This document shows, one piece after another, positions 9,649 to 43,637 of a DNA stretch of 64,000 nt. Both the position numbers and the translations under genes were made by a program. A model generated the notes under the pieces. It did not search any database. It saw only the letters and a list, made by a program, of their open reading frames with translations, and was not told the origin of the DNA. Each line of letters begins with the position of its first letter. Position 1 is the stretch's first letter. Location: positions 8,475 through 72,474 of the IMG/VR virus record IMGVR_UViG_3300028588_000019; one strand, given 5' to 3'. The DNA comes from a virus (Duplodnaviria > Caudoviricetes).

Positions 9649-9947
9649 GACGCAGAGTCGACGCCAAAATAAATTGTAACAGTTCCGTCCAATTGCGCGC
9701 AAACAAGCCCACAGCACCGAAAATCGGTTAAACTGGGCGTGTTGGTGCAGTAATTAGCGGGGTTTTGGGGGGTTTTTGGGTGCGGGTGCGCCCTACCCCC
9801 TAACCTAGTGCGCAAAACAGCGCCTAGGGTGCTTGCCGTGCGCGGCAGCTACCTTGCGGGTTACATGGTAAGTCCCCACGTTGCAGCTGCAAGGGGGTTT
9901 ACCGGGTAATCTTGCCCAAGTTCTTTCACAATCTAAGGAGAAACACC

Positions 9948-10724
9948 ATGGCACAAGCTCAAACCTCCGCAGCTCCTGGCAAAACCAAAGCTGCGCCACG
10001 CGCATCCCGCGCAAAGAAACCGCAAGCTGAGCAAGTCGTGCAGACGACTGGCAATGCAACGGGCCCTGGCGGCAAGAACATGCCAGAAGTCACCGCGCAG
10101 AACCAGAACCCGCCTGAAATCACGCAAGAGCAGCGTCAAGGTGAACGTCGTCAGCAACAGCAGAGCGCAATCGCGCGCTTTGCCAACCAGTCGATGGACA
10201 CCCCGGCAGCTCACAACGTGCCTGAAGTCACGGACGAACAGCGTAAGCTGATCGCCTTCCAGGAGCAGATGCGCATCACCGCTGAGCAGTTCGGTGTGCA
10301 GCTTCCGCCAAACCTCGAAGACGTGCTCAACGGCAAGGTTGAACAGCCGCAAGCTCAAGGCGCGCAGGGTGCACAACGTGCTCCGCGCAACGCTGACAGC
10401 CAGAACGGTGTCACGCGCCCTGCCAAGGGTACGAAGACCGGTCAGGTGTGGGACGCAGCCGACGCAATCTCGACCAGCAAGAACGGCCAACCGGCCACGA
10501 TTGCTGAAGTCAAAGAGAAGTTGGCTGGTAGCGTCAACGACGCCACGACCCGCACGCAGTATTCGCGGTGGCGTAACTACCACGGCATCAAAGGCCGGCT
10601 CGATGCTCAACCTCAGCAGCAACAAGCTGCCAGTCCTGAAGGACGTGACGAGGGTATCGAGAAAGCCTTCGGTCGTCGCAAGGACGATGTCGACCGTCGC
10701 CAAGCTGAACCAGCTGCACAGTAA
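9948..10724 (+). CDS. Q/A-rich putative DNA-binding protein with the shared C-terminal domain
   Basis: SQNGVTRPAKGTKTGQVWDAAD...NDATTRTQYSRWR; SD AAGGAG. Confidence 0.8.
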   Translation: MAQAQTSAAPGKTKAAPRASRAKKPQAEQVVQTTGNATGPGGKNMPEVTAQNQNPPEITQEQRQGERRQQQQSAIARFANQSMDTPAAHNVPEVTDEQRKLIAFQEQMRITAEQFGVQLPPNLEDVLNGKVEQPQAQGAQGAQRAPRNADSQNGVTRPAKGTKTGQVWDAADAISTSKNGQPATIAEVKEKLAGSVNDATTRTQYSRWRNYHGIKGRLDAQPQQQQAASPEGRDEGIEKAFGRRKDDVDRRQAEPAAQ

Positions 10725-10733
10725 TACAATTTC

Positions 10734-10762
10734 AACCCCGCCCTGAACCAGCGGGGTTTTTT
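10734..10762 (+). terminator. intrinsic terminator
   Basis: AACCCCGC/GCGGGGTT stem followed by a T-run. Confidence 0.8.
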
Positions 10763-10787
10763 ATTGGCAAAACTTTAGGAGTTAATC

Positions 10788-10961
10788 ATGATGAGTGGTG
10801 AAAAGCTTTACGCACTCTACGAAGAGGGGAACTCCACGTTGAACAATTGTATCGTCGACACTTGGGAGCAGTTATCAACTGACGACAAAGCTGTTTGGGA
10901 GCGCATGGCAGAAGATATCAACGACCATACGCAACGTGCCATTACCGACGTATTCACCTAA
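10788..10961 (+). CDS. 57-aa acidic protein
   Basis: SD AGGAG; its stop TAA abuts hammerhead 1. Confidence 0.7.
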   Translation: MMSGEKLYALYEEGNSTLNNCIVDTWEQLSTDDKAVWERMAEDINDHTQRAITDVFT

Positions 10962-11010
10962 CCACACTGACGAGACCTCAATGGTCGAAACCGCTTCGGC
11001 GGTCTGTGGT
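10961..11010 (+). ncRNA. hammerhead ribozyme, type I (HH1)
   Basis: ACCACA-CUGACGA-GACC(UCAAU)GGUC-GAAA-CCGC(UUCG)GCGG-UC-UGUGGU; predicted cut after C11004. Confidence 0.93.
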
Positions 11011-11040
11011 ATGTGCCACGAGTAACAGAAAGGAAGTAAG

Positions 11041-11322
11041 ATGGCAAAGATGTTTATGACAATCAAAACGGTCTATCATATTCGAGGTAAGTCTCCGAAA
11101 GTTAACCGTTCATACAACGCAAACAGAGCAGTCATGCAATGCGTCGCTCACATGCAAATCAACCACTACGGAGCACACGTTGCTGAAGTGTACGATGATG
11201 GCACAGGTGAACTGCATGCACAGGTCAAGCGCAAAGCAGACGGTTCGTTGCACATTCACTTCCAACGTGACCCGCAGAACTTCGAAACCAAGTACGCCAT
11301 GTCCCATCTTTTAGGCCTTTAA
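11041..11322 (+). CDS. hypothetical protein
   Basis: SD AAGGA; directly downstream of HH1. Confidence 0.8.
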   Translation: MAKMFMTIKTVYHIRGKSPKVNRSYNANRAVMQCVAHMQINHYGAHVAEVYDDGTGELHAQVKRKADGSLHIHFQRDPQNFETKYAMSHLLGL

Positions 11323-11332
11323 GGAGTTAGCC

Positions 11333-11572
11333 ATGAATAGTCAGATCCCGAGCAACTATACCTGCATGATTGACGAGTACCAGCGCAAGCTGATGCACGA
11401 CGTGTTCCAGGCTGTGCTCCTGCGCGACGATATGCGTGCACACTTAACCACACTAGAAGGATCCTTCGCGGACAACGCTCTGGAGGAACTGGAGATACTG
11501 CGTGACATGCTTAAGGATCTTCCCGAGCAAGAACAAAAGAGCCCAGGCGTAACTCACGGGCTGTGCCTGTAG
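11333..11572 (+). CDS. hypothetical protein
   Basis: SD AAGGAG. Confidence 0.75.
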   Translation: MNSQIPSNYTCMIDEYQRKLMHDVFQAVLLRDDMRAHLTTLEGSFADNALEELEILRDMLKDLPEQEQKSPGVTHGLCL

Positions 11573-11580
11573 TAATCACG

Positions 11581-11607
11581 AAGGGCTGAGTAGAGCCCTT
11601 TTATTTT
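11581..11607 (+). terminator. intrinsic terminator
   Basis: AAGGGCT/AGCCCTT stem followed by TTATTTT. Confidence 0.6.
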
Positions 11608-11622
11608 AATGAGGAGGTAATC

Positions 11623-11796
11623 GTGAATAGTCTTGATCGGAGAATCGTACGTAGTCGTAATAAGCGAGAGGGTTGCTACTACGACCGACCTATTTGGTGG
11701 AAATACAAAAATGGTCCAAACCGTAAGAAACGGAACGAGTTAAAGCTGGTGCAACGCGGGAAGAAGTTTAGTACCACTCGGACCAAGAAAGTTTAA
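11623..11796 (+). CDS. 57-aa very basic protein
   Basis: SD GAGGAGG, GTG start; K/R-rich; its stop abuts HH2. Confidence 0.65.
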   Translation: MNSLDRRIVRSRNKREGCYYDRPIWWKYKNGPNRKKRNELKLVQRGKKFSTTRTKKV

Positions 11797-11857
11797 CCAC
11801 ACTGACGAGCGCTAGTGCGCGAAACCGTGGCACGGAATATTGTGCGCGGTCTGTGGT
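11796..11857 (+). ncRNA. hammerhead ribozyme, type I (HH2)
   Basis: ACCACA-CUGACGA-GCGC(UAGU)GCGC-GAAA-CCGU...GCGG-UC-UGUGGU; predicted cut after C11851. Confidence 0.92.
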
Positions 11858-12176
11858 AGAAGTGAACAGTTTGCTGTTATTTGGGTTAGTATATGACAAA
11901 TAATGGGTGCTTACCCTATGTAAACGTACTATAAATTAAGTAAAAAAGAAGATTATATATAGTATAGGTAGGAACACCCACCCTCCCGGGATGGTTTCGC
12001 AGCCCCAACACCACCCACAAATAACGCTAAAGCATAACTTGCTCGTTATTATGGCAATTAACTGTATATACTACCCTACCCCCGGCTGTTGTTTATTGCG
12101 TTAGCCCTGTTTCAGCACTATACAGGGGAGGGGTAGGGTGTTATATTAGTGGTTTCCCCACCACGCAAGGATCACC

Positions 12177-12842
12177 ATGCCCCCGATTCAACTACTTAAC
12201 CATGTCAATCTTGAAACAGCTTACCTGCTGCCTGATTTCCCATACAGCTTCGGGACCAAAACGAAAGCTCGCTATTGGATTGAAACCCGCCAAGCATACG
12301 GGCAGCGGCTGTACACACAGTTCTGCGCACCTCGTTCGGAAAGCTGGTACAAGCCGAAGCCAAGCCTGTACAGCGACATCATTGTGATGACGGTGGACAC
12401 CAATGGCTATGACGCTGGCTTAGTTGTCCCGCACTTTATCGACGTGCAATCATTAAACGCAGAGCAGCTCAAGCAGTTTGCGGAATATTTCGTCCTAACC
12501 CCTTTCCAAAAGGATCGTGTGATGAAGGGTCTTGCCCGGAACAATGTCCACTATGCCCCAAAGTGGCGCAACAGTGAGGGGCTTAACCTGCGCTTGCATA
12601 TGATGGCTGAAACTAAACCAACTGCGTTGGAGCAAGTCACTAGAGGGGTAAACAGTGTGGGTATCACAACACAGTCTGCGGAGGATGCGCTCAAGGAACA
12701 ACGTCGCCGCGAACGGGAAGCTAAGACCATTATCAACACGCCCACCCCGGTCGCAAGGATGCCTAATGCAGACGCTGACGATACGACGGGCATGACCCCA
12801 GAGCAAATCGCTGTTTACAACGACCTGATGGGGAAGAGCTGA
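12177..12842 (+). CDS. hypothetical protein
   Basis: long ORF with SD AAGGA; RYWIET...W.KPK motif. Confidence 0.8.
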   Translation: MPPIQLLNHVNLETAYLLPDFPYSFGTKTKARYWIETRQAYGQRLYTQFCAPRSESWYKPKPSLYSDIIVMTVDTNGYDAGLVVPHFIDVQSLNAEQLKQFAEYFVLTPFQKDRVMKGLARNNVHYAPKWRNSEGLNLRLHMMAETKPTALEQVTRGVNSVGITTQSAEDALKEQRRREREAKTIINTPTPVARMPNADADDTTGMTPEQIAVYNDLMGKS

Positions 12843-13258
12843 TGACCTTCGACTTTATGAGCCTACCGCGCTCCGTCCAATCGGACGTCAAACCAATTGC
12901 TGAGCTCCAAGTGTACCATGTGGATGCACAGCTGGACGATGACCACACTTGGCCGGTTCTGTACCGCGCTCACTCACGCGTGGAATTCGCAGACTACTAC
13001 GTCAGCGCTTCAGTCTGGTTTGCAGCTTACCGCATCCTGGACTACACGCCGTGTGGCGTTTGGATTTCGCAAGGTGTGCAGAAGCGCAAGTTCGTCAATC
13101 TCAAAGCTGTTAAGCAATGGGCTTACCTTACTAAGGAAGAAGCCCTGCACAGCCTGAACCGGCGTAAGCAAATGCACGTTCGCCATCTTACACACGAACT
13201 TGCAGCGGCCGAGGCCCTTGCAGACTACGTTCAGCGCACGATGGAGCATAACAAATGA
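12842..13258 (+). CDS. hypothetical protein
   Basis: overlaps the upstream stop (TGATG). Confidence 0.75.
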   Translation: MTFDFMSLPRSVQSDVKPIAELQVYHVDAQLDDDHTWPVLYRAHSRVEFADYYVSASVWFAAYRILDYTPCGVWISQGVQKRKFVNLKAVKQWAYLTKEEALHSLNRRKQMHVRHLTHELAAAEALADYVQRTMEHNK

Positions 13259-13366
13259 CACAGCAATACGATAAGCCCGTCACCCGGCATTTGTCGGTAA
13301 CGGGTATTTCGAAGAAGATGTATTCAACCAGATGTACGAAGATTTAGCTCCCGAGAAAGGAAGATA

Positions 13367-13642
13367 ATGGACTATAAATACCTCACATTCAAAACCGAGC
13401 GTTCTAGGATCCGCATAGCTAGGATTCTGAAGCTACTGGAAACTCCCATGACCCGCGACAAGCTGGAGGAATGTGGTTATATGAGCAAGACAACAGCGAT
13501 TTACTGTCTACGTCATTTGCGAGAATGTACGCCGCCGAAAATCTTCATCAGTGGCTACGAAGAACGTTTTCAAAACAGGCCTGCGCCGGTCTATTCATTA
13601 GGTGCGGGTCCGGACGTTCAACCGCCACGGAAGGTTGCATGA
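13367..13642 (+). CDS. winged-HTH protein, paralog of 506-928
   Basis: IFISGY...PVYSLGAGPDV. Confidence 0.65.
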   Translation: MDYKYLTFKTERSRIRIARILKLLETPMTRDKLEECGYMSKTTAIYCLRHLRECTPPKIFISGYEERFQNRPAPVYSLGAGPDVQPPRKVA

Positions 13643-13731
13643 ACAAATGGCGCTGCCGCTATTGCGGTGTATGGAACCGACCAACCGCTGTCATTTGCTG
13701 GTGCAGGAGGAAAATTAATGAGCGAACCTAA
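13639..13731 (+). CDS. 30-aa Zn-finger-like peptide
   Basis: WRCRYCGVWN...ICWC; ATGA overlap. Confidence 0.5.
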   Translation: MNKWRCRYCGVWNRPTAVICWCRRKINERT

Positions 13732-13942
13732 AGCGTACGACTACGTGATTGCCGCTGCTAAACTGGCTGCTCGCGATATGAAGCGTCTGAAAGCAAAGCC
13801 GCACATTGTCCAGATTCGTGATTTGGGTGGTACAGTTTTTTATGCGGTTTATAGGAACCGAAATGCTGTTCGTTTGATAGGTTACGTCAACAGCTTGGAC
13901 CAGCTAACGCAAAATTGGGCCTACATAACGCGGATGCCCTAA
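13718..13942 (+). CDS. hypothetical protein
   Basis: SD AGGAGG then ATG 13718. Confidence 0.7.
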   Translation: MSEPKAYDYVIAAAKLAARDMKRLKAKPHIVQIRDLGGTVFYAVYRNRNAVRLIGYVNSLDQLTQNWAYITRMP

Positions 13943-13970
13943 TAGCTGGAAATAAATTAAATTTCAGCCA

Positions 13971-14000
13971 ATGCACTGTGGTATAATACTTACAGTGCAT
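13971..14000 (+). promoter_or_regulatory. extended -10 promoter inside an inverted repeat
   Basis: ATGCACTGT-G-GTATAAT-ACTT-ACAGTGCAT. Confidence 0.65.
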
Positions 14001-14033
14001 TTACGGAAGTTTATCAAAATACTAGAGGGTTAC

Positions 14034-14834: not shown

Positions 14835-14842
14835 GAGGTATA

Positions 14843-16051: not shown

Positions 16052-16058
16052 ACGCCTT

Positions 16059-16094
16059 AACGGGTGTATAATGGGGGTTGCAGTACACCCCGTT
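16059..16094 (+). promoter_or_regulatory. TATAAT promoter inside an inverted repeat, GA/TC-free
   Basis: AACGGGTG-TATAAT...TACACCCCGTT. Confidence 0.55.
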
Positions 16095-16118
16095 ACCTTA
16101 ACAATTTAGGAGTAGTAA

Positions 16119-22161: not shown

Positions 22162-22247
22162 TCACGTCCACTAAAACAGCTTTACCCCTTCGGGGGTAGG
22201 CTGTAAAATGGTTACGCTGTACTAATAAACCCTAACTGGAGTAATAC

Positions 22248-26139: not shown

Positions 26140-26161
26140 TGCGGATCACGTAAAATTCTGC

Positions 26162-26190
26162 TTGCATATACGTAACAACGCGCGCATAAT
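26162..26190 (+). promoter_or_regulatory. sigma70-type promoter
   Basis: TTGCAT-N17-CATAAT. Confidence 0.7.
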
Positions 26191-26256
26191 AGCGGTTCCT
26201 GTTCAAGCAGGTAAGTCCCCGGTTCACGCCGGGGAATTCTAACAAACGGAGAGTAA

Positions 26257-29483: not shown

Positions 29484-31228
29484 TGTCTGTTCGCCTCATA
29501 CCCCGCGACTATCAGCTGGAAACAGTTAATAGCATCTTTCGTTACTTTCAGGCAAACCGCACTGGCAATCCGGTTGCGGGGTTGCCCACGGGTACGGGCA
29601 AGGCTTTCTGCATTGCCTACTTCCTGTTCAAAGCTCTGGAGATGTATTCCAAGCAAAAGATTCTCGTTGCGACACACGTTAAAGAGCTTGTTGACCAGAA
29701 CTATAAAGAGTTCATTGAAATCTGGCCGCAAGCTCCGGCAGGTGTCTACAGTGCCGGTTTGAAGCGCAAAGATACGCATCAGTCTGTTATCTTCTGCGGT
29801 ATTGCGTCGATTGCTAAGAATATCGAAGCTTTCGGTCGGGTGGACTTAGTGATTGTGGACGAGTGCCACCTCATCAGCCTCAAAGAAGACTCGATGTACC
29901 GTGCGGTATTTGACGCGCTCAAGGTTATTAATCCGAACCTTCGCATCATTGGTTTCACCGCCACCCCATGGCGCGCTGGTCAAGGTCGTCTTACCGAAGG
30001 CGATGGTATCTTTACCGATATGTGTATCGACCTTACCGACATGGCGTCCTTTAACCGCTTTGTGCGGGAGGGGTACTTAGTCCCACTGGTGTCCAAGCCT
30101 ACAAAGCTCTTGCTTGACGTTACAGGGGTTAAAATCACAGCAGGTGAGTATAACGAGAAATCGCTGGACTTGGCTGTAAATAAAGACCATATCACTTTTG
30201 CTGCACTTCAGGAGGCGCAGCAGTATGCGTACGAAACAGGGCGCCGTAGTTGGATCATTTTTGCAACAAGCCTAGCGCATGCCGACAAGATTAAAGAAAT
30301 GCTGGAATATCTCGGTGTGACTTGTCGTGTCGTGCACAGTAAAATGTCTTCGACCGAGCGTGACAACAACGTTGCTGACTGGAAAGCAATGAAGTTTACC
30401 GCCATCATTAACATGGGCGTCCTAACAACTGGTGTGAACCATCCTGCGCTAGACTTAATTGTCATGCTGCGTCCAACAATGTCGTCTGTCCTTTGGGTAC
30501 AGATGCTCGGTCGCGGGACTCGTCCGTTATTTGTTCGTGAAGGTTACGACTTAACAACCATCCAAGGGCGACTCGATTCTATTGCTGCTAGTGCAAAACA
30601 GTATTGTCTAGTAATGGACTTTGCGGGTAACATCAAGCGCTTGGGACCCGTCAACGACCCGGTCATCCCCCGCAAGAAGGGTGCATCAAAAGGCGAAGTC
30701 CCGATTAAAGAATGCGACGCTTGCGGGATGTATAACCACATCAGTGCGAAGTGGTGCGGTGGCACCCCATTCAAAACGAATGAAGGTTGCGGCGCGGAGT
30801 TTGTATTCCGTGTACAGCTGAAGCAGGAAGCAAGCACCGAGGCTGTCGTTCGTGAGGACGACTTACCTGTTATTGAAACCTTCCCTGTGATGCAAACGAC
30901 CGCCTCAGTGCATCGAAAAGAGGGTAAGCCTGACAGCTTGAAGGTGACGTACTATTGCTTCACCAAAAAGTTCACAAAGTACATTCTAATTGAGCATCCC
31001 GGATTTGGCCGTCGCAAAGCTGAAATGTGGTGGAGTGAGCGAACGAACTTGACTTTACCCATCACAACGGCTGAGGCAATGGAAATATTCACGGAGCTTA
31101 GCGTACCGACTCACATCCAAGTGTGGACAAACGCTCCGTATCCTGAAATTATGAAGGAGTGCTTCATGGGCGAATTTGCAAATAGCGTCCCCGGTAACGA
31201 ACTTGCAAAGAATGATATTCCGTTCTAA
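29483..31228 (+). CDS. SF2 helicase (RadD/YejH-like)
   Basis: PTGTGK, DECH, TAT, QMLGRGTR, Zn ribbon. Confidence 0.92.
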   Translation: MSVRLIPRDYQLETVNSIFRYFQANRTGNPVAGLPTGTGKAFCIAYFLFKALEMYSKQKILVATHVKELVDQNYKEFIEIWPQAPAGVYSAGLKRKDTHQSVIFCGIASIAKNIEAFGRVDLVIVDECHLISLKEDSMYRAVFDALKVINPNLRIIGFTATPWRAGQGRLTEGDGIFTDMCIDLTDMASFNRFVREGYLVPLVSKPTKLLLDVTGVKITAGEYNEKSLDLAVNKDHITFAALQEAQQYAYETGRRSWIIFATSLAHADKIKEMLEYLGVTCRVVHSKMSSTERDNNVADWKAMKFTAIINMGVLTTGVNHPALDLIVMLRPTMSSVLWVQMLGRGTRPLFVREGYDLTTIQGRLDSIAASAKQYCLVMDFAGNIKRLGPVNDPVIPRKKGASKGEVPIKECDACGMYNHISAKWCGGTPFKTNEGCGAEFVFRVQLKQEASTEAVVREDDLPVIETFPVMQTTASVHRKEGKPDSLKVTYYCFTKKFTKYILIEHPGFGRRKAEMWWSERTNLTLPITTAEAMEIFTELSVPTHIQVWTNAPYPEIMKECFMGEFANSVPGNELAKNDIPF

Positions 31229-31307
31229 AAATAAATGTGTTTGCGCTGCCGCATGTGCTGTACAATGTGTGCTTGTGGTAGCGCAAACCTTAAAGGAGAT
31301 GTGACTT

Positions 31308-32060: not shown

Positions 32061-32120
32061 GTGTCAAGGCAAGCACTTTTTCGTGATCCAAAAATATTTG
32101 CTTGTATCCGAAAAAAGTGC

Positions 32121-32149
32121 TTGCAGTTAGTAAATAAGCCGGTTATAGT
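32121..32149 (+). promoter_or_regulatory. sigma70-type promoter; the -35 overlaps an inverted repeat (32071-32122)
   Basis: TTGCAG-N17-TATAGT; AAGCACTTTTTCG...CGAAAAAAGTGCTT. Confidence 0.7.
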
Positions 32150-32221
32150 TAAGCCTCACTCGCCGCAAACAGTGTAACGTAGTTAATCCAGTTTACATCA
32201 AATCATTATTAGGAGTTTCAA

Positions 32222-33110: not shown

Positions 33111-33839
33111 TTGCAAGTCATCCCAATCAATAAGCAACCGATCGAAAAGCGCAACAACGAGGCGCGTTCGCTCGAAGTCCATTCCATTTTCCTCACCATT
33201 CAAGGTGAGGGTCCATTCACCGGATACCCAGCAGTATTCATCCGCCTCGCGGGCTGCAACCTGCAATGCCCTTCGTGCGACACCGACTACACCAACGGTC
33301 GCAAGGGTATGTCCGTCGAAGCAATTGTGTCGGAAGTGAAAAGCGTGCACTCGGAATGCAATGCGCGGCCCATTGTGGTCATCACCGGTGGCGAACCCTT
33401 CCGTCAAAACATCGAACAACTGGTTGAACTGCTGTTGCGCCAGGACTTTACCGTCCAGGTCGAGACCAACGGTACGCTTGCACCACTCAACGTCCAAGCA
33501 CCAGTGTGGTTCAATCGCAAGTTTCACATCGTATGCAGCCCGAAGGCTGGCAAGGTACACAACTGGATTGCCAATCGCGCCGACTGCTTCAAGTACGTCC
33601 TGAGCGCCGACAGTGTCGACCCGGAAGACGGCCTGCCAATCCTTGCGCTTAACCACACTGCCTCGCCGCGCGTTGCTCGTCCATTCTTCAGCACGAAGAA
33701 CAAGCCCATCTATCTGCAACCGATGGACGCGAAAGACCAAGCTAAGAACGATGCTAACGTCTGCGCAGTCCTGCAAAGCTGCATCAAACACGGCTATATC
33801 TTCCAACTGCAAACGCACAAATACATCGGGGTCGAATGA
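33111..33839 (+). CDS. queE: 7-carboxy-7-deazaguanine synthase (radical SAM)
   Basis: SIFLTIQGEG...RLAGCNLQCPSCDT, TGGEP, ETNGT, LQTHK; TTG start after GAGG. Confidence 0.95.
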   Translation: MQVIPINKQPIEKRNNEARSLEVHSIFLTIQGEGPFTGYPAVFIRLAGCNLQCPSCDTDYTNGRKGMSVEAIVSEVKSVHSECNARPIVVITGGEPFRQNIEQLVELLLRQDFTVQVETNGTLAPLNVQAPVWFNRKFHIVCSPKAGKVHNWIANRADCFKYVLSADSVDPEDGLPILALNHTASPRVARPFFSTKNKPIYLQPMDAKDQAKNDANVCAVLQSCIKHGYIFQLQTHKYIGVE

Positions 33840-34039: not shown

Positions 34040-34323
34040 GGCTCGAAGACTGGAGTGTGGTCGCTTCACCATTGTCAGGTTACCGTGACCCGGAGCAATG
34101 GTCCCCTAAGCTGTACGGCACGGTGTACGGTAATCCAAAGTTCGCGGACGGTTCGCTTATTTTTACGAGCCGCATTGTTACGGTGGACAAAAAGGCTGGC
34201 ACTGCAACCACCAAGTCCGGCAGCGTCTATGTGCTGGGTGAAGTGTCCGCAGAATACGAAAACATTCATCCAAACGCGCGTGAGCGCTTCTTCAATCAAG
34301 GGGTTAGCAATGTTCAAAATTAA
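34036..34323 (+). CDS. hypothetical protein
   Basis: L.G.VYG.P.F.DG..I.TS...T.SG..Y.LG pattern. Confidence 0.7.
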   Translation: MRLEDWSVVASPLSGYRDPEQWSPKLYGTVYGNPKFADGSLIFTSRIVTVDKKAGTATTKSGSVYVLGEVSAEYENIHPNARERFFNQGVSNVQN

Positions 34324-35107
34324 AGCACTGGTCGTCCTGTCCGGCGGCCAAGATTCGACCACCTGCGCATTCTGGGCCAAGCAGCAGGGTTACGAGATCC
34401 ACGCGGTGACTTTCGATTACGGTCAGAAGCACGTCATCGAAATCGAAGCGGCCAAGAAGATCGCGGAACTCGTCGGCGCCGTGTCGCACGAGATCATCAA
34501 GCTGGGCGACGGCGTCCTGGCCGGTACGTCCCCGCTCACCAACAAAGCGGAAGTCCTGGAACAATACGCCGACCACCAATCGCTGCCAGGCGGTCTGGAA
34601 AAGACCTTCGTACCGCTGCGCAATCAGCTGTTCTTGACCGTTGCTGCGAACCGCGCCTACGTCATGGGCTGTACCGTGCTGGTCACCGGCGTCTGTCAAG
34701 AAGACAGCGGAGGCTATCCGGACTGCCGCGCCACCTTCATCAGCGCCGTACAGGACGCAACCAACTATGGTACGTTTACCGGCGAACCCGGTACGCTGCC
34801 ACCCCTGCGCATCCTGACCCCGCTGATGTACCTGACCAAGGCCGACAGCGTGCGCCTGGCGCGTGCCATCCCGGGCTGCTACGATGCGCTGGCGTATTCC
34901 CACACCAGCTACGACGGCGCTTACCCGCCCGTAGGTAAAGACCATGCAACCCTCCTGCGCGCAAAAGGCTTCGAAGAAGCAGGCTTGCCTGACCCGCTGG
35001 TCGTGCGTGCATGGAAAGAGGGTCTGATGGACCTTCCAGATACGAAGGTTTACAACGACTTCGAAGACCAAATGGACGCTGCTCGCGAAGCTGCTGAGGG
35101 CGACTAA
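34310..35107 (+). CDS. queC: 7-cyano-7-deazaguanine (preQ0) synthase; variant lacking the Zn-binding cysteines
   Basis: SGGQDST, FDYGQKH, FVPLRN, GYPDCR; ATG 34310. Confidence 0.93.
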   Translation: MFKIKALVVLSGGQDSTTCAFWAKQQGYEIHAVTFDYGQKHVIEIEAAKKIAELVGAVSHEIIKLGDGVLAGTSPLTNKAEVLEQYADHQSLPGGLEKTFVPLRNQLFLTVAANRAYVMGCTVLVTGVCQEDSGGYPDCRATFISAVQDATNYGTFTGEPGTLPPLRILTPLMYLTKADSVRLARAIPGCYDALAYSHTSYDGAYPPVGKDHATLLRAKGFEEAGLPDPLVVRAWKEGLMDLPDTKVYNDFEDQMDAAREAAEGD

Positions 35108-35108
35108 C

Positions 35109-35303
35109 ATGGCAATCGGCGGCGGTATTCGTAAAGGCAATGGCTGCGTTACCGCCGCCAAGCCCGAGTCCATTTACGAGGCGCATCGTAAGCTCGAGAA
35201 GAAGTACACTGAAAAGTGCCAGCAACTTGAGCGTGCAGAGAAGAAAATCTTAATTCTGAACGAGCGCATTAAAAAACTTTCTGCAAAGAAGAATCCAAAA
35301 TGA
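35109..35303 (+). CDS. small coiled-coil protein
   Basis: heptad C-terminus. Confidence 0.6.
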   Translation: MAIGGGIRKGNGCVTAAKPESIYEAHRKLEKKYTEKCQQLERAEKKILILNERIKKLSAKKNPK

Positions 35304-35824
35304 GCAAATATCGCAGTACCAAGACCTACGGTCACGAGCTCGGACTGTCGGCGTGCTTCCGCCAGCATCGTGCAACGCATTCGCACTGCTCGATGCTGCA
35401 CGGTTACGCGCTCGCGTTCACTTTCACGTTCGAAGCAGACACGCTGGACGACCGCAATTGGGTCCAGGACTTCGGAGGCCTGAAAGAACTGAAGCAAAAG
35501 CTTCAACGGACGTTCGACCACAAGCTGGTCGTCGCGGAAGACGATCCGAAGGTGCACGAGATTTGCCGTTTGGACGGCTACGTCGCGGACGTACTTGTGC
35601 TGCCTGCGGTCGGCTGCGAAGCGTTCGCGAAACAGGCTTACGACATGGCCTGTGAAGTTATTCGTGACGCAAACAAGGCTGAGGTTGCTCGTCTCCAGTC
35701 TGAGCACAAGCCTGGCACCCAATGGCCAACCGCTGGTCGTCAGCGCGTCCGCGTCGTGTCGGTCGAGTGCCGCGAGCACGGCGCCAACAGCGCAATTTAC
35801 ATCGGTGGCGAGGATGAAGCATAA
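35300..35824 (+). CDS. queD: 6-carboxy-tetrahydropterin synthase
   Basis: HCSMLHGY...DFG.LK...FDH...CE..A...E. Confidence 0.92.
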   Translation: MSKYRSTKTYGHELGLSACFRQHRATHSHCSMLHGYALAFTFTFEADTLDDRNWVQDFGGLKELKQKLQRTFDHKLVVAEDDPKVHEICRLDGYVADVLVLPAVGCEAFAKQAYDMACEVIRDANKAEVARLQSEHKPGTQWPTAGRQRVRVVSVECREHGANSAIYIGGEDEA

Positions 35825-36053
35825 ACTCATCTATGACAGGCGAGCAGGCGGTTACTCAGCAATCTGTTCGCTTTATAACCAACTCGGGGTGGCGGAATTC
35901 GTCATCACTATGGACCATAACGAAGGATTTACGCATAGCGTGCTTCGTGTTCCAGACGAGAAGGTTATTGTCACCTGGCGCAAACTTGGCAAGGACATGC
36001 ACAACTGTCCTGTCGAACCTAATAAATTTATTGTTACGAAATCACTAGCATGA
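35814..36053 (+). CDS. hypothetical protein
   Basis: SD GGCGAGG, ATG 35814. Confidence 0.6.
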   Translation: MKHKLIYDRRAGGYSAICSLYNQLGVAEFVITMDHNEGFTHSVLRVPDEKVIVTWRKLGKDMHNCPVEPNKFIVTKSLA

Positions 36054-36673
36054 ACATTAAAGAAAACGAGCAAGGTCAAAAGCACTACATCCGCGTGAAA
36101 GCTGTCGAACAACTGCTACGCACGATCCCGGGCACACTAGCACCTGCACCAGCAGAATTCGGACAGCTGACCGGCGCACTGCGCGAAGGCGTCCAGGACA
36201 CGCCGAATCGCGTTGCCAAGGCTTGGGCGGAATGGACCAGCGGTTATAGCATTGACATCGCAGAACTGCTGAAGGTGTTCGAAGACGGCGCCGAGGGCTA
36301 CGATGAGATGGTTGTGGTCAAAGACATCCCCATCTACAGCAAGTGCGAGCATCACCTCGCAGACATCTTCGGCACGGCAACCATCGCGTATATCCCGGAC
36401 GGCAAGGTTGTCGGCCTGTCCAAGCTGTCCCGCCTGGCAGATGCGTTCGCAAAGCGTCTGCAAGTGCAGGAGCGCCTGACGGTGCAGATCGCTGACGCGC
36501 TGATGGAACATCTGCAACCGAAAGGCTGTGGCGTTATCGTCCGTGCCAGACATATGTGCATGGAATCGCGGGGCATCTGCCAGCAAGGTCACCACACTGT
36601 GACTTCCGCATTGCGCGGTGTGTTCAAGGATCAACCTGAAACCCGCGCCGAATTCCTGGCGCACGGAAAATAA
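36050..36673 (+). CDS. folE: GTP cyclohydrolase I
   Basis: TPNRVAK, SKCEHH, GLSKL, RLQVQERLT, HMCMESRG. Confidence 0.97.
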   Translation: MNIKENEQGQKHYIRVKAVEQLLRTIPGTLAPAPAEFGQLTGALREGVQDTPNRVAKAWAEWTSGYSIDIAELLKVFEDGAEGYDEMVVVKDIPIYSKCEHHLADIFGTATIAYIPDGKVVGLSKLSRLADAFAKRLQVQERLTVQIADALMEHLQPKGCGVIVRARHMCMESRGICQQGHHTVTSALRGVFKDQPETRAEFLAHGK

Positions 36674-37757: not shown

Positions 37758-37783
37758 AACGCGCTACAAGCGCGTGCAATCCG

Positions 37784-37815
37784 GGGGTGCAGTGTGCTAT
37801 GCTGTACCCCTTTTT
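37784..37815 (+). terminator. intrinsic terminator
   Basis: GGGGTGCAG/CTGTACCCC followed by TTTTT. Confidence 0.7.
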
Positions 37816-37872
37816 AACGCGCTGCGCACCCTTGCCGCAAGCGCAAACCGCATTCCAGGGCCAGTACAAGCT

Positions 37873-38799
37873 ATGAAACTTTTCCTCGCTGCTGTCTACA
37901 CCAATCATTACATGGAGACGCAGAACCGCTACGAGAAGCTGAACGAAGCTGAGCAGCACATTATGTCGGATGTCCCGAACATCCTTGAATCATATCACTA
38001 CGTTAAGAACCAGTCCTTTGTAGATACAATGAGGTCGCGCGGTGCAAAGGTCTTTCTTGACTCGGGCGCATTCTCCGCGCACTCGCTGAACGCCCATATT
38101 GATATCAACCAGTATTGCGACTACATCATCCGCAACAGGGATATCCTGCGCGTCGAAGATGGCGCAGTAATGGCTTCGGTGCTTGACGGTATCGGTGACC
38201 CGCTCAAGACCTACCAGCACCAGCTTCACATGGAAAAGATGGGTGCAAAGCCTCTCCCCTGCTTCCACTACGGCGAAGACATCCGTTACCTCGAGTTCTA
38301 CGTCAAGAACTATGACTACATTACGATCGGTGGTCTGGTGCGGCGCACGTCCGAAGCACAGAAGGTGTGGTTAGACCGCATTTGGCCGTACATGCTGGAC
38401 GGTAGCGGTCGTCCAAAGTTGAAAGTCCATGCCTTCGGTATGACGGCACCGTGGCTGATGGAACGATATCCATGGTACAGTGTCGACTCCTCGTCTTGGA
38501 TTCAGGCAGCGGCGTTCGGTTCCATCTTTACCAGCGAGCACGGACCAATTGCAGTGTCCAGCACTTCGCCTTCCCGGCACGACTACGGCAGGCACATAAC
38601 CACACTACCCGACGTCGAGCGTCAATACATGGAGCAAATGCTCGCTAAAAAAGGTTTTGAAACTGAGCGTCTAGGCACAGTTTACGAATCCCGGGCAGTG
38701 TATAATATGCTGGGGTACATGGAATTAAACGACCTGATCCTCGAGCGGATCAAAGGCAAGCAGACATTCGATTGCAGTAAAATTCAGGAGCTATTCTAA
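37873..38799 (+). CDS. dpdA: DNA 7-deazaguanine transglycosylase (TGT-like)
   Basis: FLDSGAFS, HYGE, HAFG, SVDSSSW; next to the que genes; no clear SD, so start uncertain. Confidence 0.85.
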   Translation: MKLFLAAVYTNHYMETQNRYEKLNEAEQHIMSDVPNILESYHYVKNQSFVDTMRSRGAKVFLDSGAFSAHSLNAHIDINQYCDYIIRNRDILRVEDGAVMASVLDGIGDPLKTYQHQLHMEKMGAKPLPCFHYGEDIRYLEFYVKNYDYITIGGLVRRTSEAQKVWLDRIWPYMLDGSGRPKLKVHAFGMTAPWLMERYPWYSVDSSSWIQAAAFGSIFTSEHGPIAVSSTSPSRHDYGRHITTLPDVERQYMEQMLAKKGFETERLGTVYESRAVYNMLGYMELNDLILERIKGKQTFDCSKIQELF

Positions 38800-39430: not shown

Positions 39431-39650
39431 CGAGCCCCCGAGCCACAGCCCGAAGGACTTCCCCGAAATGGAAGTATGGGTCGATGGAAAGCCGCAGCGT
39501 CGCCCTGTCGAGAGTGTACAGATGCCTAGTGCAATGGGTATGCTGATCGGCTTTGTGCCAACACCCCGTCTTGAACCTATCCTGTTTGAAAACGAACGTG
39601 CAGAACACTTGCTCGACGGTCGCGTTATTATTATCAAGGTGAAGCAATGA
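39420..39650 (+). CDS. hypothetical protein
   Basis: SD AAGGA, ATG 39420. Confidence 0.55.
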   Translation: MPRNEPPSHSPKDFPEMEVWVDGKPQRRPVESVQMPSAMGMLIGFVPTPRLEPILFENERAEHLLDGRVIIIKVKQ

Positions 39651-40621
39651 CTACAATGCTCGAAGCGTTGAAGTTTGTACAAGGAAGTATCGCTAAAAAA
39701 GAACTGGTCGATGAGCTCACGCACTTCCAAATTAAGAACGGTCGGGTTAGCGGTTACAACGGCGTGATTGCGCTTAGCAGCCCTATCCCGTTCGATCTCA
39801 ACTGCAACCCCAAAGCAGCAGAGCTCATCAAAGCTATCTCAAACTGCGACGAAAATGACACCATCCAGTTGTCGTTGACCCCAGGCGGCAAGCTGACCGT
39901 CAAGAGCGCAGGGTTCCGCGTCAACATCCAGTCTTTCAATGAGCCTGTGCACAGTTACGAGCCTGAAGGTGAAGTTGTAGAGTTCGACGGCGAAGCGTTC
40001 TTGCAGGGTGTGAAGGCTGTGTCCCCATTCATTGGACAGGATGCTTCGCGTAAATGGTCGCAGGGTGTGCTAATTAAAGACAGCTCGTTCTTTGCGACCA
40101 ATAATGTCACGTTGGTCCAATACTGGCTGGGCGCAGTATTTCCGTTCGAGATTAACATCCCGATGCCTACGGTTAAAGAAATTCTGCGCATCAAGGAAGC
40201 ACCCCTCTCGATGCAGGTTGCGGAGAACTGCTTTACCCTGCACTACAGCGGGGACCGCTGGCTCCGGTCGCAGTATTACAGTATCAAAGAGTGGCCTGAC
40301 CTTGGGAAGATCCTGGACCGCCCGTTTAACCCCGGACCACTTGATCCAGCAGTCTTTGTTGGTCTTGAAAAGATGAAAAGCTTCGTCGACCCGCTGGGGA
40401 GCATTTACTTCCAGGGCGGTCTGATGACCACACATCCTGACGTTGCTGAAGCTAACGCCACGTTCGCGGTCCCGAGCATCCAAACCGAAGGCCTGTTTAA
40501 CAATCAAATGCTTGCGCTGCTCGAAGGTGTTGCGACGCATATCGACTGGACAACCTACCCTGCACCGTGCCTGTTCTCAGGCGATCGGCTGCGCGGTGCA
40601 ATTGTGGGGATGCGCAAATGA
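39647..40621 (+). CDS. beta-clamp-like DNA polymerase processivity factor
   Basis: three-domain size; N-terminus and terminal motifs resemble DnaN; next to the polymerase. Confidence 0.7.
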   Translation: MTTMLEALKFVQGSIAKKELVDELTHFQIKNGRVSGYNGVIALSSPIPFDLNCNPKAAELIKAISNCDENDTIQLSLTPGGKLTVKSAGFRVNIQSFNEPVHSYEPEGEVVEFDGEAFLQGVKAVSPFIGQDASRKWSQGVLIKDSSFFATNNVTLVQYWLGAVFPFEINIPMPTVKEILRIKEAPLSMQVAENCFTLHYSGDRWLRSQYYSIKEWPDLGKILDRPFNPGPLDPAVFVGLEKMKSFVDPLGSIYFQGGLMTTHPDVAEANATFAVPSIQTEGLFNNQMLALLEGVATHIDWTTYPAPCLFSGDRLRGAIVGMRK

Positions 40622-40974
40622 ACGATACTACCGCGAAGCGAAGGCCTGTAATTGTGGTCATGGGGGCGCCAATGGGCGGCAAAAGCTGGGTGAACGACGC
40701 CCTCCGCAAGTTCGCAGAAGAGGGTCATGCCACCGTGCTTATCGTACCTGAGCTCGGAACCGTTCAAGGTACGCGGTTTGTTGCGTTGGACGAGTACGCT
40801 GACCTAACTTGCTCGAACACCATGACCCCACACACGGCGTTCCCGGAATTCATCGAACCTACCGACACCCGCAAGGAGAAGTTCGCACAGCTGACAGCTG
40901 AACTGTACCGTGCAAAAGCGATGCGCAATAAGCATCTTGTTAAAGAACTTGAAAAGCGCATTAAGCGACTCTAA
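40618..40974 (+). CDS. small protein with a Walker A-like motif
   Basis: VIVVMGAPMGGKS. Confidence 0.5.
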   Translation: MNDTTAKRRPVIVVMGAPMGGKSWVNDALRKFAEEGHATVLIVPELGTVQGTRFVALDEYADLTCSNTMTPHTAFPEFIEPTDTRKEKFAQLTAELYRAKAMRNKHLVKELEKRIKRL

Positions 40975-40976
40975 TC

Positions 40977-43043
40977 ATGCGGGCAGATAGCGTAGGATTA
41001 TTCTGGGAGGACGTTGCTAAAGTCAAGCCTCCCAAGAAAGAAAAAGTAAAGCGCACTCCACCCGAGAAGTTTTGGACGGTGGAAGGTTACATTCCGCCTG
41101 GTGCACTGGAGGAAGCGCAGTCGTACGAGTACAAGTTCTTCAACGATATGGAACTGTACCAGGCAATGTTGCGCGGTGAACGCTTGGTGTATGACTTGGA
41201 GGTCTACCCGAATTATTTCCTAGCAGGCTTTAAAGGCATTGATAGCGGAAAGTATGTGTTCCTCGAAGAGATTCACCACGATCTTGGCGACCTCCCTGAA
41301 CGCACTTACAACCGCGAAAAGCTCAAGTGGATCCTTGAAAAGTTTACGCTGATTAGCTTCAACGGCAAGAAGTACGACGATATCATTTCTGCGCTTGCAG
41401 TGCACCCGCAATTCGGCTGCATTGACTTCTGGAACGCAACCTGCATGCTGATCCAGGAGGGTTTGCGCGACCGTGATATTTATTCGCACTACTCTGTCAA
41501 GAAACTTGAAATTGACAGTATCGACATTAAAGAGCTTACAGCGCAAGGGCCTAGTTTGAAGAAATGCGCAGCACGCTTGCATGCCCCACGATTGCAAGAC
41601 CTGCCGTTCATCCCCGGTACATACCTCACGGACAGGCAAATTGTTGTGTTGCGCCGATACAACATCAACGACTTGGACAACACGCAGATTGTTTACGAGT
41701 CCAAGCTCGACATTATTGCGATTCGTGAGCAGAAGGGTAAAGAATACGGCGTAGACCTGCGGTCTAGTTCCGATGCGCAAATGGCTGAAGCGATTGTTGG
41801 CGCTGAGATTCGGCGTATGACCGGACGCAAGTATATCCAGCGCACCAAGATTGACCCCGGTACAGCTTACAAATACCGCGCGCCAACGTGGGTGAACTTT
41901 AAGACTCCGATGATGCAAGACTTCTTGCGTCGATTGCAGAAGCTGGACTTTGTGGTCAACCATTGGGACGGCGGTTTGCTCATGCCGCCTGAGCTCGATA
42001 AGTACACTATTAAGATTGCAGAGGGTAGCTATGCTGTCGGTATCGGTGGGCTGCACAGCCAGGAGAAGTCGGTTGCATGGTACGCAGACGACGAATACGA
42101 ACTGGTTGACACCGACGCGACGTCCTACTATCCCACACTGATCCTTAACGCGGGTCTGAAACCGCAATCGCTCGGTGACGCGTTCATTCAGATTTATCGT
42201 CGCATCGTTCAAGAGCGTGTTGCAGCAAAGCACGCAGGCGACGACATCACCGCGCAGTGCTTGAAGATTGTCATTAACGGCACGTTCGGTAAACTTGGCA
42301 ATATGTACTCAATCATGTACGCGCCCCACCTCATGTTGCAGGTTACGATTACGGGTCAGCTGTCGCTGCTGATGCTCATTGAGCGCTTTGAGCTTGCAGG
42401 TATTCGCGTCATTAATGCTAACACCGACGGTGTGGTTGCTCGTCCGCACAAGTCCCAGCGCGAAACCTTTAACGCTATCGTCAAGCAGTGGGAACGCGAA
42501 ACGGGCTTCGGTACGGAAGAAACGCTCTACAAAGCGTACATGGCTAAAGACGTGAATAACTACCTTGCACAGTACGTTAAGCCTGAAAAGGGTCAGCACT
42601 TTAAGACAAAGGGTCTGTACGCTAAAACCTCGTCGGCGAAGAATGCCGTCAATGAGGTCTGTATCCTTGCGCTGAAGGAATATCTCATCAACAAGACCTC
42701 CGTCGAAGAAACAATTCGCAACTGCACAAAGCCATCCATGTTTACCACAATGCGCGAGACGCACATGGGCGGTGGAGCGGTCAAAGGGGACCAGTACCTC
42801 GGCAAAGTGGTTCGTTGGTATTACGCGAAAGGTGAGACCGGAGAGATTCAGGTCGTTAAGACGGGTAACAAGGTTGCACGCTCGGACGGTGCAATTCCAC
42901 TGATGGATTTACCAGACGAGCTACCGGAGGATTTAGACTACGACTGGTACATCGCTGAGGCGAATAAGATCCTTGGTAAGATCGGTACAGTGGCGGAAGA
43001 GGGGGAGTCTGACGAAGAAGACGAAGAAACTGAAACCGCTTAA
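40977..43043 (+). CDS. family B DNA polymerase
   Basis: exonuclease DLEVY; DATSYYP, KIVINGTFG, NANTDG. Confidence 0.92.
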   Translation: MRADSVGLFWEDVAKVKPPKKEKVKRTPPEKFWTVEGYIPPGALEEAQSYEYKFFNDMELYQAMLRGERLVYDLEVYPNYFLAGFKGIDSGKYVFLEEIHHDLGDLPERTYNREKLKWILEKFTLISFNGKKYDDIISALAVHPQFGCIDFWNATCMLIQEGLRDRDIYSHYSVKKLEIDSIDIKELTAQGPSLKKCAARLHAPRLQDLPFIPGTYLTDRQIVVLRRYNINDLDNTQIVYESKLDIIAIREQKGKEYGVDLRSSSDAQMAEAIVGAEIRRMTGRKYIQRTKIDPGTAYKYRAPTWVNFKTPMMQDFLRRLQKLDFVVNHWDGGLLMPPELDKYTIKIAEGSYAVGIGGLHSQEKSVAWYADDEYELVDTDATSYYPTLILNAGLKPQSLGDAFIQIYRRIVQERVAAKHAGDDITAQCLKIVINGTFGKLGNMYSIMYAPHLMLQVTITGQLSLLMLIERFELAGIRVINANTDGVVARPHKSQRETFNAIVKQWERETGFGTEETLYKAYMAKDVNNYLAQYVKPEKGQHFKTKGLYAKTSSAKNAVNEVCILALKEYLINKTSVEETIRNCTKPSMFTTMRETHMGGGAVKGDQYLGKVVRWYYAKGETGEIQVVKTGNKVARSDGAIPLMDLPDELPEDLDYDWYIAEANKILGKIGTVAEEGESDEEDEETETA

Positions 43044-43086
43044 AACGCGTTTGCCGCGTTTTGTTTGCGCGGTAGGGGGTAAGTGT

Positions 43087-43120
43087 AGGGGGTACGGGCT
43101 TTGCAGCGTGTACCCCCTTT
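43087..43120. terminator. terminator-like hairpin between convergent operons
   Basis: AGGGGGTAC/GTACCCCCT followed by TT, between the polymerase and spanin stops. Confidence 0.55.
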
Positions 43121-43124
43121 GCCG

Positions 43125-43637
43125 TTACTGCGCTGGTGCGTTGCAGGTGTCCCGCGCAGCGTTGTACAGGTCGATCAGGAGGTTGCGTTCTCGCACAAGT
43201 CTTGCACTGTCTGCTGCGGCGCGGAGAACGTCTTCAGAAGCTTCTGGCACCAGATCGGTTCCTCCTTCTTCGACACCGAATCCGGCAGTGGTGGGATTTG
43301 AGGGCGCTTGGTTTCCAGGAGCCGGACTTGCGGGGCAGCGCAACCCGCTAGTGCCAGCACGAGCCCGAGCAATAGCTTTTTCAATTGCATCTTCATGTTT
43401 AGCTTTCAGGATGGATTCGTTGGTGGTGAGGGTTTGGACTTGAGCTTTCAACGCTGCTTCGCGCTGTTCGGCAAGCTTGTTCAGTTTGACTTGAGCGTCT
43501 TTCGCGATCTTGTCGTCGGATGCAATTTGAGCAAGCAATTCTTGCGCACCGTCGTGACGCCCGTACTGGAATAGACCATAACCCAGCAGCGCAGCAAGCA
43601 GAAGGCCCACGAACCAGTCCAACAGGTCGGACTTCAT
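43125..43637 (-). CDS. i-spanin (Rz-like)
   Basis: N-terminal TM, coiled coil, follows the endolysin. Confidence 0.85.
   Translation of the reverse strand: MKSDLLDWFVGLLLAALLGYGLFQYGRHDGAQELLAQIASDDKIAKDAQVKLNKLAEQREAALKAQVQTLTTNESILKAKHEDAIEKAIARARAGTSGLRCPASPAPGNQAPSNPTTAGFGVEEGGTDLVPEASEDVLRAAADSARLVRERNLLIDLYNAARDTCNAPAQ
43175..43396 (-). CDS. embedded o-spanin lipoprotein (Rz1-like)
   Basis: LVLALAG-C lipobox, Pro-rich, nested in another frame of Rz. Confidence 0.8.
   Translation of the reverse strand: MKMQLKKLLLGLVLALAGCAAPQVRLLETKRPQIPPLPDSVSKKEEPIWCQKLLKTFSAPQQTVQDLCENATS

Follow-up and report, generated by a model that had tools for sequence, protein, structure and literature searches.

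The 64-kb window analysed here, by which we mean the whole stretch from base 8475 to base 72474 of the 72,474-bp IMG/VR virus record IMGVR_UViG_3300028588_000019, comes from a siphovirus that encodes the DNA guanine transglycosylase DpdA, and its early and middle region is interrupted by tracts from which the dinucleotides GA and TC, that is, GA on either strand, are largely or wholly missing. The depletion is specific to GA/TC and, within the tracts, to GGC/GCC; it is restricted to the early/middle block of genes, and it recurs in related phages without any conservation of the underlying sequence. We think it probable that these are cis-acting tracts that a dPreQ0 phage keeps hard-wired in a modification-free state. 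We further infer that promoters, operators or terminators make up these tracts and would be impaired by modification.

The window products include a 1996-amino acid (aa) tape-measure protein, minor tail proteins and a spanin, and there is a Queuovirinae-like replication module consisting of primase, Sak4-like protein, SSB-like protein, Cas4-type exonuclease, helicase, sliding clamp and DNA polymerase. The genes queE, queC, queD, folE and dpdA are consecutive at 33111-38799 and make up a full preQ0/DpdA module. By tblastn, the DpdA protein is 60-66% identical to Queuovirinae DpdA; identity is 65% with the protein of phage CAjan and 57% with its counterpart in phage iggy. No GenBank phage was matched by megablast with the dpdA region, and all relatives came from protein searches. 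The experimentally mapped target of CAjan DpdA is GA plus GGC (PMC7544227), and that of iggy DpdA is GA only (PMC10484667). Were targeting CAjan-like in the present phage, 21.6% (GA) plus 6.0% (GGC) of its G would be dPreQ0. A leaf-litter metagenome is the only sequencing run that holds the full record, and may be the record's own source sample; the sequencing-run look-up returned no RNA runs holding the record's sequence.

Across the genome GA/TC occurs at 0.116 per nucleotide (nt), a weak overall deficit (observed/expected ratio, o/e, 0.92). The longest runs free of GA/TC measure 197, 149, 118 and 91 nt, and the equivalent runs for four dinucleotide classes of like frequency are at most 85 nt. 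Intergenic regions were taken from a simple gene map and shuffled one at a time at constant mononucleotide composition. Intergenic DNA contained 646 GA/TC against approximately 880 expected (z -9.8), which is the strongest deviation among ten dinucleotide classes; 7 of the 41 spacers of at least 60 nt fall at the floor p-value (p <= 0.002) for GA/TC, and none does so for any other two-member class. The early/middle block on the plus strand (4137-43124) has 38 spacers, in which 473 GA/TC are found and 690 expected (z -10.4), while the 12 spacers of the late structural block on the minus strand are at background (173 against 191 expected, z -1.6). All depleted spacers fall within the early/middle block or at its margins, where they account for about 10 of the 38 and the rest are normal; in total, the pattern amounts to about 12 tracts, or some 1.2 kb of spacer, together with one gene.

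An earlier note on this DNA had described its promoters and terminators as sitting in GA/TC-free stretches that together formed a genome-wide code. Its counts for eight such stretches are exact: neither GA nor TC occurs in 9726-9872, 16053-16105, 31229-31293, 43036-43149, 26162-26190 and 32121-32149, while 12000-12125 and 37755-37872 each contain no GA and two TC. It was also right that coding DNA is normal in this respect (0.119 per nt), save for the gene at 4857-5312, and the depletion exceeds that of composition-matched shuffles, the comparison by which the note had proposed that its idea be judged. The breadth of the claim has to be given up, since only about a quarter of the early/middle spacers are depleted and the late spacers are not. 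The 29-nt cores at 26162-26190 and 32121-32149 are too short to be significant alone. We discarded GA/TC-free runs inside SSB-like genes (42700-42870 in iggy and 28147-28410 in the present phage), which encode low-complexity Gln/Pro/Gly/Ala linkers; linkers of the same type give runs of 168 and 108 nt in the DpdA-less phages PA73 and RcThunderbird.

The comparison with other phages took in three complete uncultured genomes (G001, G002 and G003, with DpdA 69-78% identical), three partial ones, CAjan, iggy, 9g, NP1 and Vibrio phage ALK, five more dpdA phages of other clades and, as controls, ten phages without dpdA, five of which belong to the same primase lineage. Spacers at p <= 0.002 for GA/TC number seven each in the present phage, G001, G003 and iggy, six in G002, four in ALK, three in CAjan, two in 9g and none in NP1. 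The ten controls have between zero and two each (5 of 228 spacers in total), and in dpdA phages the other dinucleotide classes contribute zero or one. The z-score of intergenic GA/TC in DpdA-less phages ranges from +3.6 to -6.3, with mild deficits in some. In eight of nine related genomes the early/middle block is the more depleted one, the exception being ALK, in which both blocks are similar. A blastn search with the tracts of the present phage found no similarity in its relatives, and yet tracts are found there at the same four syntenic places, namely the head of the early operon (362 nt free of GA/TC in G001 and 395 nt in G002), behind the helicase gene, in front of dpdA (129-156 nt in L004, L006 and L007, with diverged sequence) and at the convergent junction, which is GA/TC-free in G001, G002 and G003 too. 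That the property is kept where the sequence is not is the mark of selection on the property itself. GA/TC is thus below composition-matched expectation, the shortage is specific to these words, and it persists across diverged relatives, as befits motif avoidance under selection.

Two other patterns of word usage came to light among the genomes compared. The dpdA-carrying Vibrio phage 1.207.B (MG592577; L103-L105) shows intergenic depletion of CA/TG (z -7.7, with four spacers at p <= 0.002) and of AC/GT (z -7.0) instead of GA/TC, and its DpdA may have a different motif. Five of the controls (PA73, Loki, RcThunderbird, Langgrundblatt1 and Chi; L052-L063, L074-L076) are low in AG/CT genome-wide (0.074-0.089) and, in most cases, in CA/TG too, with strong intergenic deficits of AG/CT (z from -6 to -9) that have no connection with dpdA.

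Since the tracts were chosen solely by their lack of GA/TC, the remaining 24 trinucleotide classes could be ranked within them using a dinucleotide-preserving shuffle. The most depleted class in the present phage is GGC/GCC, the second motif of CAjan (o/e 0.42), and the same is true of G001 (0.27), G003 (0.40) and ALK (0.09), all four at rank 1 of 24 with p 0.005; G002 (0.64, rank 2) and CAjan (0.65) follow. In iggy, whose DpdA spares GGC, there is no depletion of this class (o/e 0.92, rank 10, p 0.74), and there is none in NP1 (1.02) or T1 (1.15). Given this contrast across genomes, the tracts track known enzyme specificities, and an indirect reading of the paucity of GGC/GCC makes a CAjan-like dual motif plausible for the present phage.

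Ordinary promoter-like sequences carry a narrower trace of the same avoidance. We examined matches to TTGNNN-N16-18-TANNNT upstream of genes for an A at the fourth base of the -35 box (TTGA): it is present in 14 of 114 cases in nine dpdA phages, whereas controls have it in 34 of 54 (Fisher 3.6e-11). Boxes beginning TTGC make up 65% of the dpdA-phage matches; only among controls is TTGACA the commonest hexamer. The contrast holds both within E. coli/Salmonella hosts (p 0.0015) and within Pseudomonas hosts (p 0.0002). At such promoters, avoidance seems to be limited to the base-specific -35 contact, and tracts of 60-200 nt call for some additional explanation, for instance that they are operators for the winged-helix paralogues described below, that footprints are extended, or that they are used on the incoming, fully modified genome.

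The strongest feature in the window, a 1-kb island, heads the early block and lies outside the range that the earlier reader had covered (Table 1). GA/TC drops abruptly from 0.125 per nt in the adjoining 4137-4400 to 0.025 per nt within the island, which includes GA/TC-free runs at 4559-4649 (91 nt) and 4677-4873 (197 nt, the longest overall). When the protein of the first gene is resampled with synonymous codons, 35.4 GA/TC are expected and 12 are present (z -6). Its orthologues are likewise purged, with 6 against 27 expected in G001 and 3 against 29 in G002, and the z-scores for gene 1 and orthologues span -5.5 to -6.5. The avoidance is seen at synonymous sites: selection acts at the DNA level. 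At the island's left edge, TTCCACGC occurs four times within 100 nt (4468-4565, plus strand), three of these being the full GTTCCACGCG; the few TC steps in that area come almost entirely from these copies, which may be a protein-binding repeat, an origin or a packaging signal.

Table 1. Motif-poor tracts and associated genes in the window (window coordinates; wHTH, winged helix-turn-helix; fold z, folding z-score; p, per-region shuffle for GA/TC)
Feature	Position	Strand	Details
GA/TC-poor island at head of early block: upstream region and whole first gene	4401..5400	+	25 GA/TC in 1000 nt
First early gene, 151 aa, no known family	4857..5312	+	GA/TC-avoiding even at synonymous sites
GA/TC-free, hairpin; directly 3' of gene 1	5328..5391	+	64-nt run; fold -24.8 kcal/mol, z -1.8
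GA/TC-free, TGG-TATAAT extended -10-like element	8797..8856	+	60-nt run; unstructured
GA/TC-free, hairpin-rich; upstream of wHTH-like paralogue 9948-10724	9725..9873	+	149 nt; fold z -2.1; three GGGTGC copies; region 9649-9947 p=0.001
Putative wHTH-like paralogue, one of four	9948..10724	+	phrog_18634
Three adjoining GA/TC-free runs (11896-11948, 11998-12043, 12044-12112); upstream of gene 12177-12842	11896..12112	+	region 11797-12176 p=0.001
GA/TC-free, hairpin; upstream of gene 16119-16325	16052..16110	+	59-nt run; region 16052-16118: 1 GA/TC, p=0.001
GA/TC-free; upstream of MazG-like gene 22248-22847 (PHROG match)	22191..22239	+	49-nt run; region p=0.006
GA/TC-free promoter-like core (TTGCAT, 17 nt, CATAAT); upstream of Sak4-like gene	26158..26197	+	40-nt run; unstructured, fold z +1.1; spacer as a whole p=0.14
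GA/TC-free long imperfect palindrome/hairpin; helicase gene to wHTH-like paralogue 31308-32060	31225..31296	+	72-nt run; fold -30.5 kcal/mol, z -5.0; region p=0.004
GA/TC-free promoter-like core (TTGCAG, 17 nt, TATAGT); upstream of wHTH-like paralogue 32222-32818	32111..32156	+	46-nt run; unstructured
queE	33111..33839	+	PHROG match, E 3e-59
queC	34310..35107	+	PHROG match, E 1e-61
queD	35300..35824	+	PHROG match, E 2e-38
folE	36050..36673	+	PHROG match, E 1.5e-75
GA/TC-free; gene 37194-37757 to dpdA; hairpin, UUUUU, then ~40 nt more	37781..37854	+	74-nt run; fold z -2.85; region 37758-37872: 2 GA/TC, p=0.001
dpdA (DNA guanine transglycosylase)	37873..38799	+	phrog_887, E 9e-79
GA/TC-free at convergent junction of early/middle (+) and late (-) blocks; A-tract/hairpin/T-tract (bidirectional terminator-like), second hairpin, G5/C5	43033..43150	.	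118-nt run; fold z -2.6; region p=0.001

Folding divides the tracts into a hairpin-rich kind (31225-31296, 37781-37854, 43033-43150 and 9725-9873) and an unstructured kind with -35/-10-like cores (26158-26197, 32111-32156 and 8797-8856). Intrinsic terminators are recognisable at 37783-37813, where a 13-bp stem is followed by UUUUU, 25 nt past the stop codon of gene 37194-37757, and at 43041-43062, where an A-tract, an 8-bp stem and a U-tract occupy the convergent junction. The hairpins of 9725-9873, 16052-16110 and 31225-31296 have no U-tract and do not qualify as intrinsic terminators. The TTGNNN/TANNNT pattern fits 26162-26190 and 32121-32149, with -35 boxes that match the consensus at only three of six positions, and most of the long tracts have no -35/-10-like core. 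Rfam at its gathering threshold and ARAGORN gave no matches. The labels of promoter and terminator plausibly fit some of the tracts, and for the remainder they are candidate labels only. Of the earlier note's assignment of promoters and terminators to these stretches, what holds is that some contain an intrinsic terminator (37783-37818; 43041-43062) or an unstructured -35/-10-like core (26162-26190; 32121-32149); as a general statement it is not supported, scans showing no excess and promoter-like cores elsewhere carrying GA/TC in their spacers. It had also suggested that the dpdA leader might belong to the code; this stretch does include a GA/TC-free run, but is mainly the terminator of the upstream gene and has no evident sigma-70-type promoter. 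Beside the convergent junction, the acidic tail of the DNA polymerase (42980-43035) is a dense series of GA codons and the 118-nt stretch starts a few bases from its stop codon; G001 is arranged likewise.

Several words are enriched in the tracts, namely GGGGGT/ACCCCC (15-fold), GGGGTA (9-fold) and GGGTGC (6- to 12-fold). RGGGTGC occurs in clusters, with nine copies at 4484-5363 and three at 9778-9827, and is 12-fold enriched in the tracts; it is enriched too in G001 (10-fold) and G002 (6-fold), and not in G003 or iggy. We regard it as a candidate operator half-site.

Four paralogous genes (4857-5312, 9948-10724, 31308-32060 and 32222-32818) each lie directly downstream of one tract. Their products have a C-terminal domain of about 70 aa in common and differ in their N-termini, which are of low complexity (Ala/Lys/Glu-rich in 32222); pairwise blastp E-values are 5e-25 (9948 and 32222), 5e-7 (31308 and 32222), 1e-5 (31308 and 9948) and 8e-4 (4857 and 31308). 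In Atlas models the domain appears to resemble a winged-helix fold, which we offer as a lead only. Searches of Pfam, PHROG, PDB sequences and the Atlas returned no named family for gene 1 or the paralogue domain, the PDB matches being low-complexity noise. The homologues in CAjan and iggy are annotated as putative transcriptional activators. Runs of 99-218 nt free of AC/GT occur in G001 (32672-32889), G002 (37783-37918), Vibrio phage ALK (19079-19218) and iggy (38544-38757); AC/GT was considered as a second avoided word and rejected, the runs encoding the Ala/Lys/Glu-rich N-terminus of the gene 32222 homologue (GCN/AAR/GAR codons).

In proposing a reason for these observations, we suggest that the tracts would be cis-acting segments at the transcription-unit boundaries of the early/middle block, including the early operon control region with the entire first gene, spacers with promoter-like cores, palindromes or hairpins, and terminators, and that selection would keep them free of the motif of the phage's own DpdA, i.e., GA on either strand and, less strongly, GGC. 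FolE, QueD, QueE and QueC would make preQ0, and DpdA probably swaps it for between about 22% (GA) and 28% (GA + GGC) of G. The motif-free stretches would then be the only virion DNA to enter the cell as canonical B-DNA, with guanine N7 intact in the major groove. Their purpose would be to let host RNA polymerase/sigma and phage DNA-binding proteins read their sites on modified DNA, and to have the first gene expressed at once. The candidate phage readers would be the four winged-helix-like paralogues encoded right behind four tracts. In line with this purpose, the use of TTGC.. for TTGA.. removes the sole GA of the sigma-70 consensus.

A number of observations weigh against this reading. Modification of the present DNA at GA/GGC is taken over from homologues 57-65% identical to its DpdA. 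Of the earlier proposal that these stretches are unmodified, what holds is their recurrence in DpdA phages, including the GA-only iggy, and their absence from the ten DpdA-less phages, while the modification and its motif are carried across by homology. CAjan and iggy are sisters on the DpdA tree despite their different motifs, and so phylogeny does not track motif; a clustering of GGC-avoiding phages on that tree was looked for and rejected (two changes, equal to shuffles). The avoidance of GGC is incomplete, with 29 copies left in the tracts, and GGT, a weak secondary site of CAjan, is enriched rather than depleted. Whole promoter-like cores are not significantly freer of GA/TC than those of controls (16% vs 6%, p 0.08), and their spacers carry GA/TC as often as controls. 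Scans for consensus promoters and terminators (4000-17000 and 25000-44900) gave counts no higher than in shuffles and did not flag the tracts. Terminators act through RNA, and have no obvious need of unmodified DNA. Finally, five DpdA phages (NP1, PSASB_03, VPv64, RHph_Y55 and Rosebush), four of which fall outside the clade with the present DpdA on the tree, have no GA/TC tracts, and all of the positive genomes belong to one broad lineage, the Queuovirinae and kin, so that lineage is not fully separated from possession of dpdA.

These last two points also speak for the strongest alternative, which we nevertheless consider unlikely: that the tracts express a regulatory style peculiar to the lineage, with palindromes, G5/C5 hairpins and operator repeats such as GGGTGC, from which GA/TC would be absent incidentally through the motifs of the regulators. 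The genomes with strong tracts are all related, the five DpdA phages without them are of other clades, and GGGGGT/ACCCCC, GGGGTA and GGGTGC are the enriched words. However, the enriched motifs vary from genome to genome (AAACGC/TTTAAA in G003, C-runs in iggy) and what is common is the absence of GA/TC, in tracts that cannot be aligned between relatives. Unstructured, promoter-like tracts and a whole coding gene at its synonymous sites are depleted as well, and the co-depletion of GGC/GCC follows the experimentally established difference between the CAjan and iggy motifs.

A constraint at the RNA level seems to us improbable. An endoribonuclease or an RNA-acting transglycosylase might target GA/UC, with stems mimicking the symmetry between strands; many tracts do fold stably (z -2 to -5), and a GA on one arm of a stem forces UC opposite. 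But unpaired stretches and unstructured tracts also lack both GA and TC, spacers of the same operons that contain hammerhead-like motifs (10961-11010 and 16312-16369) are normal in GA/TC, coding mRNA is normal in GA/UC, and the convergent junction is depleted on both strands.

We give still less credence to mutational decay, in which the modified G at GA would be mutagenic and GA would erode under weak selection, in the manner of CpG loss. The weak genome-wide deficit (o/e 0.92) is in keeping with such a process, yet late spacers are at background (z -1.6), 4137-4400 beside the island is GA-rich, boundaries are abrupt and most early spacers are normal, so that the uniform depletion of weakly constrained sites is not seen; moreover, a conserved coding gene is depleted where its neighbours are not. 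Chance, base composition (spacers rich in AT or in G-runs) or an avoidance of GA/TC-containing restriction sites can be all but dismissed: although cores of 29-46 nt could lack GA/TC by chance and some DpdA-less phages have mild intergenic deficits, per-region shuffles and run-length statistics reject chance and refute it for the long tracts, which retain common sites devoid of GA/TC (GCGC, GTAC) and whose loss of every GA and TC far exceeds the need of any set of restriction sites.

The dPreQ0 systems of CAjan and iggy resemble that of the present phage in possessing folE, queD, queE, queC and dpdA and the same order of the replication module, and their published motifs are the words avoided in the tracts. 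Where those papers map modified sites (PMC7544227, PMC10484667), our observation concerns where the motif is absent; neither makes mention of promoters, intergenic regions or motif-free tracts (PMC7544227, PMC10484667), and such tracts are found here in the iggy genome, among them those at 60074-60586, 32722-32811 and 3179-3286 of MN029011, and, more weakly, in that of CAjan. Hutinet et al. (2019) raised the possibility that 7-deazaguanines might block sigma or transcription factors that need guanine N7 (PMC6884629), and judged it unproblematic because sigma-70 sites are AT-rich (PMC6884629). Our concern with the loss of a major-groove N7 contact is the same, but the TTGC boxes and motif-free control regions suggest that phages adapt to it.

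The structure of these tracts has likenesses to two familiar phenomena. Like the avoidance of palindromic restriction sites, it is a selective loss of short words because of an enzyme that acts on them; in this case, however, the phage avoids the target of its own protective enzyme, and does so locally, in about 1.2 kb of spacers and one gene, leaving those stretches unprotected. Like vertebrate CpG islands and the non-methylated GATC sites of bacterial regulatory regions (e.g., pap), it would leave regulatory DNA unmodified in a modified genome; yet in those cases the motif is present and shielded by bound proteins, whereas the phage has deleted it from the sequence and would have the unmodified state hard-wired. 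Literature searches found no published report of promoter or intergenic motif avoidance in deazaguanine phages. The modification system had already been published together with its motifs; what is new is that a phage locally avoids the motif of its own modification. That phages hypermodifying guanine at short motifs as a general rule write their early control regions, and often the first expressed gene, free of the motif is an extrapolation that we put forward tentatively and consider rather doubtful.

The 7-deazaguanine modification has been regarded as purely protective, against restriction and CRISPR. On what it costs the phage's own expression a single remark has been published, which dismisses the cost (PMC6884629); hard-wired islands free of the motif would give the first evidence from genomes that this cost exists and of how it is paid. 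If the general rule suggested above is true, transcription initiation or the binding of regulators would in fact suffer from 7-deazaguanine in the major groove. The islands would also reveal uncharacterised DpdA specificities from sequence alone (here GA + GGC, in iggy GA only), a prediction that is correct for iggy and CAjan in the contrast between GA only and GA + GGC. They would locate the DNA that host RNA polymerase reads first on an incoming modified genome, and so mark early promoters and operators in uncultured phages. As predicted unprotected stretches, they would be relevant to restriction, CRISPR targeting and phage engineering. Mutants of dpdA or modification maps already exist for CAjan and iggy; they include dpdA deletion mutants of CAjan (PMC7544227), and public nanopore runs cover wild-type (SRR22405777) and amplified (SRR22407576) iggy DNA.

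Three minor features complete the description of the window. The hammerhead-like motifs are sub-threshold Rfam matches on the plus strand, that at 10961-11010 to type I (26.6 bits against a gathering threshold of 34, E 0.005) and that at 16312-16369 to HH9 (25.8 bits, E 0.007); both stand directly after the stop codons of early genes, in spacers with normal GA/TC, and hammerhead cores need GA. The third feature is a 127-bp 'direct terminal repeat' (1-127 and 72348-72474 of the full record, listed as G000; 63874-64000 of the window), which lies inside the late-gene block, beside or over called genes, and appears to be an overlap left by assembling a circular or permuted map, not true termini. 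In iggy, the mapped terminal repeat of 1091 bp is at the end of the record, and the largest GA/TC-free tracts of that genome are also there.

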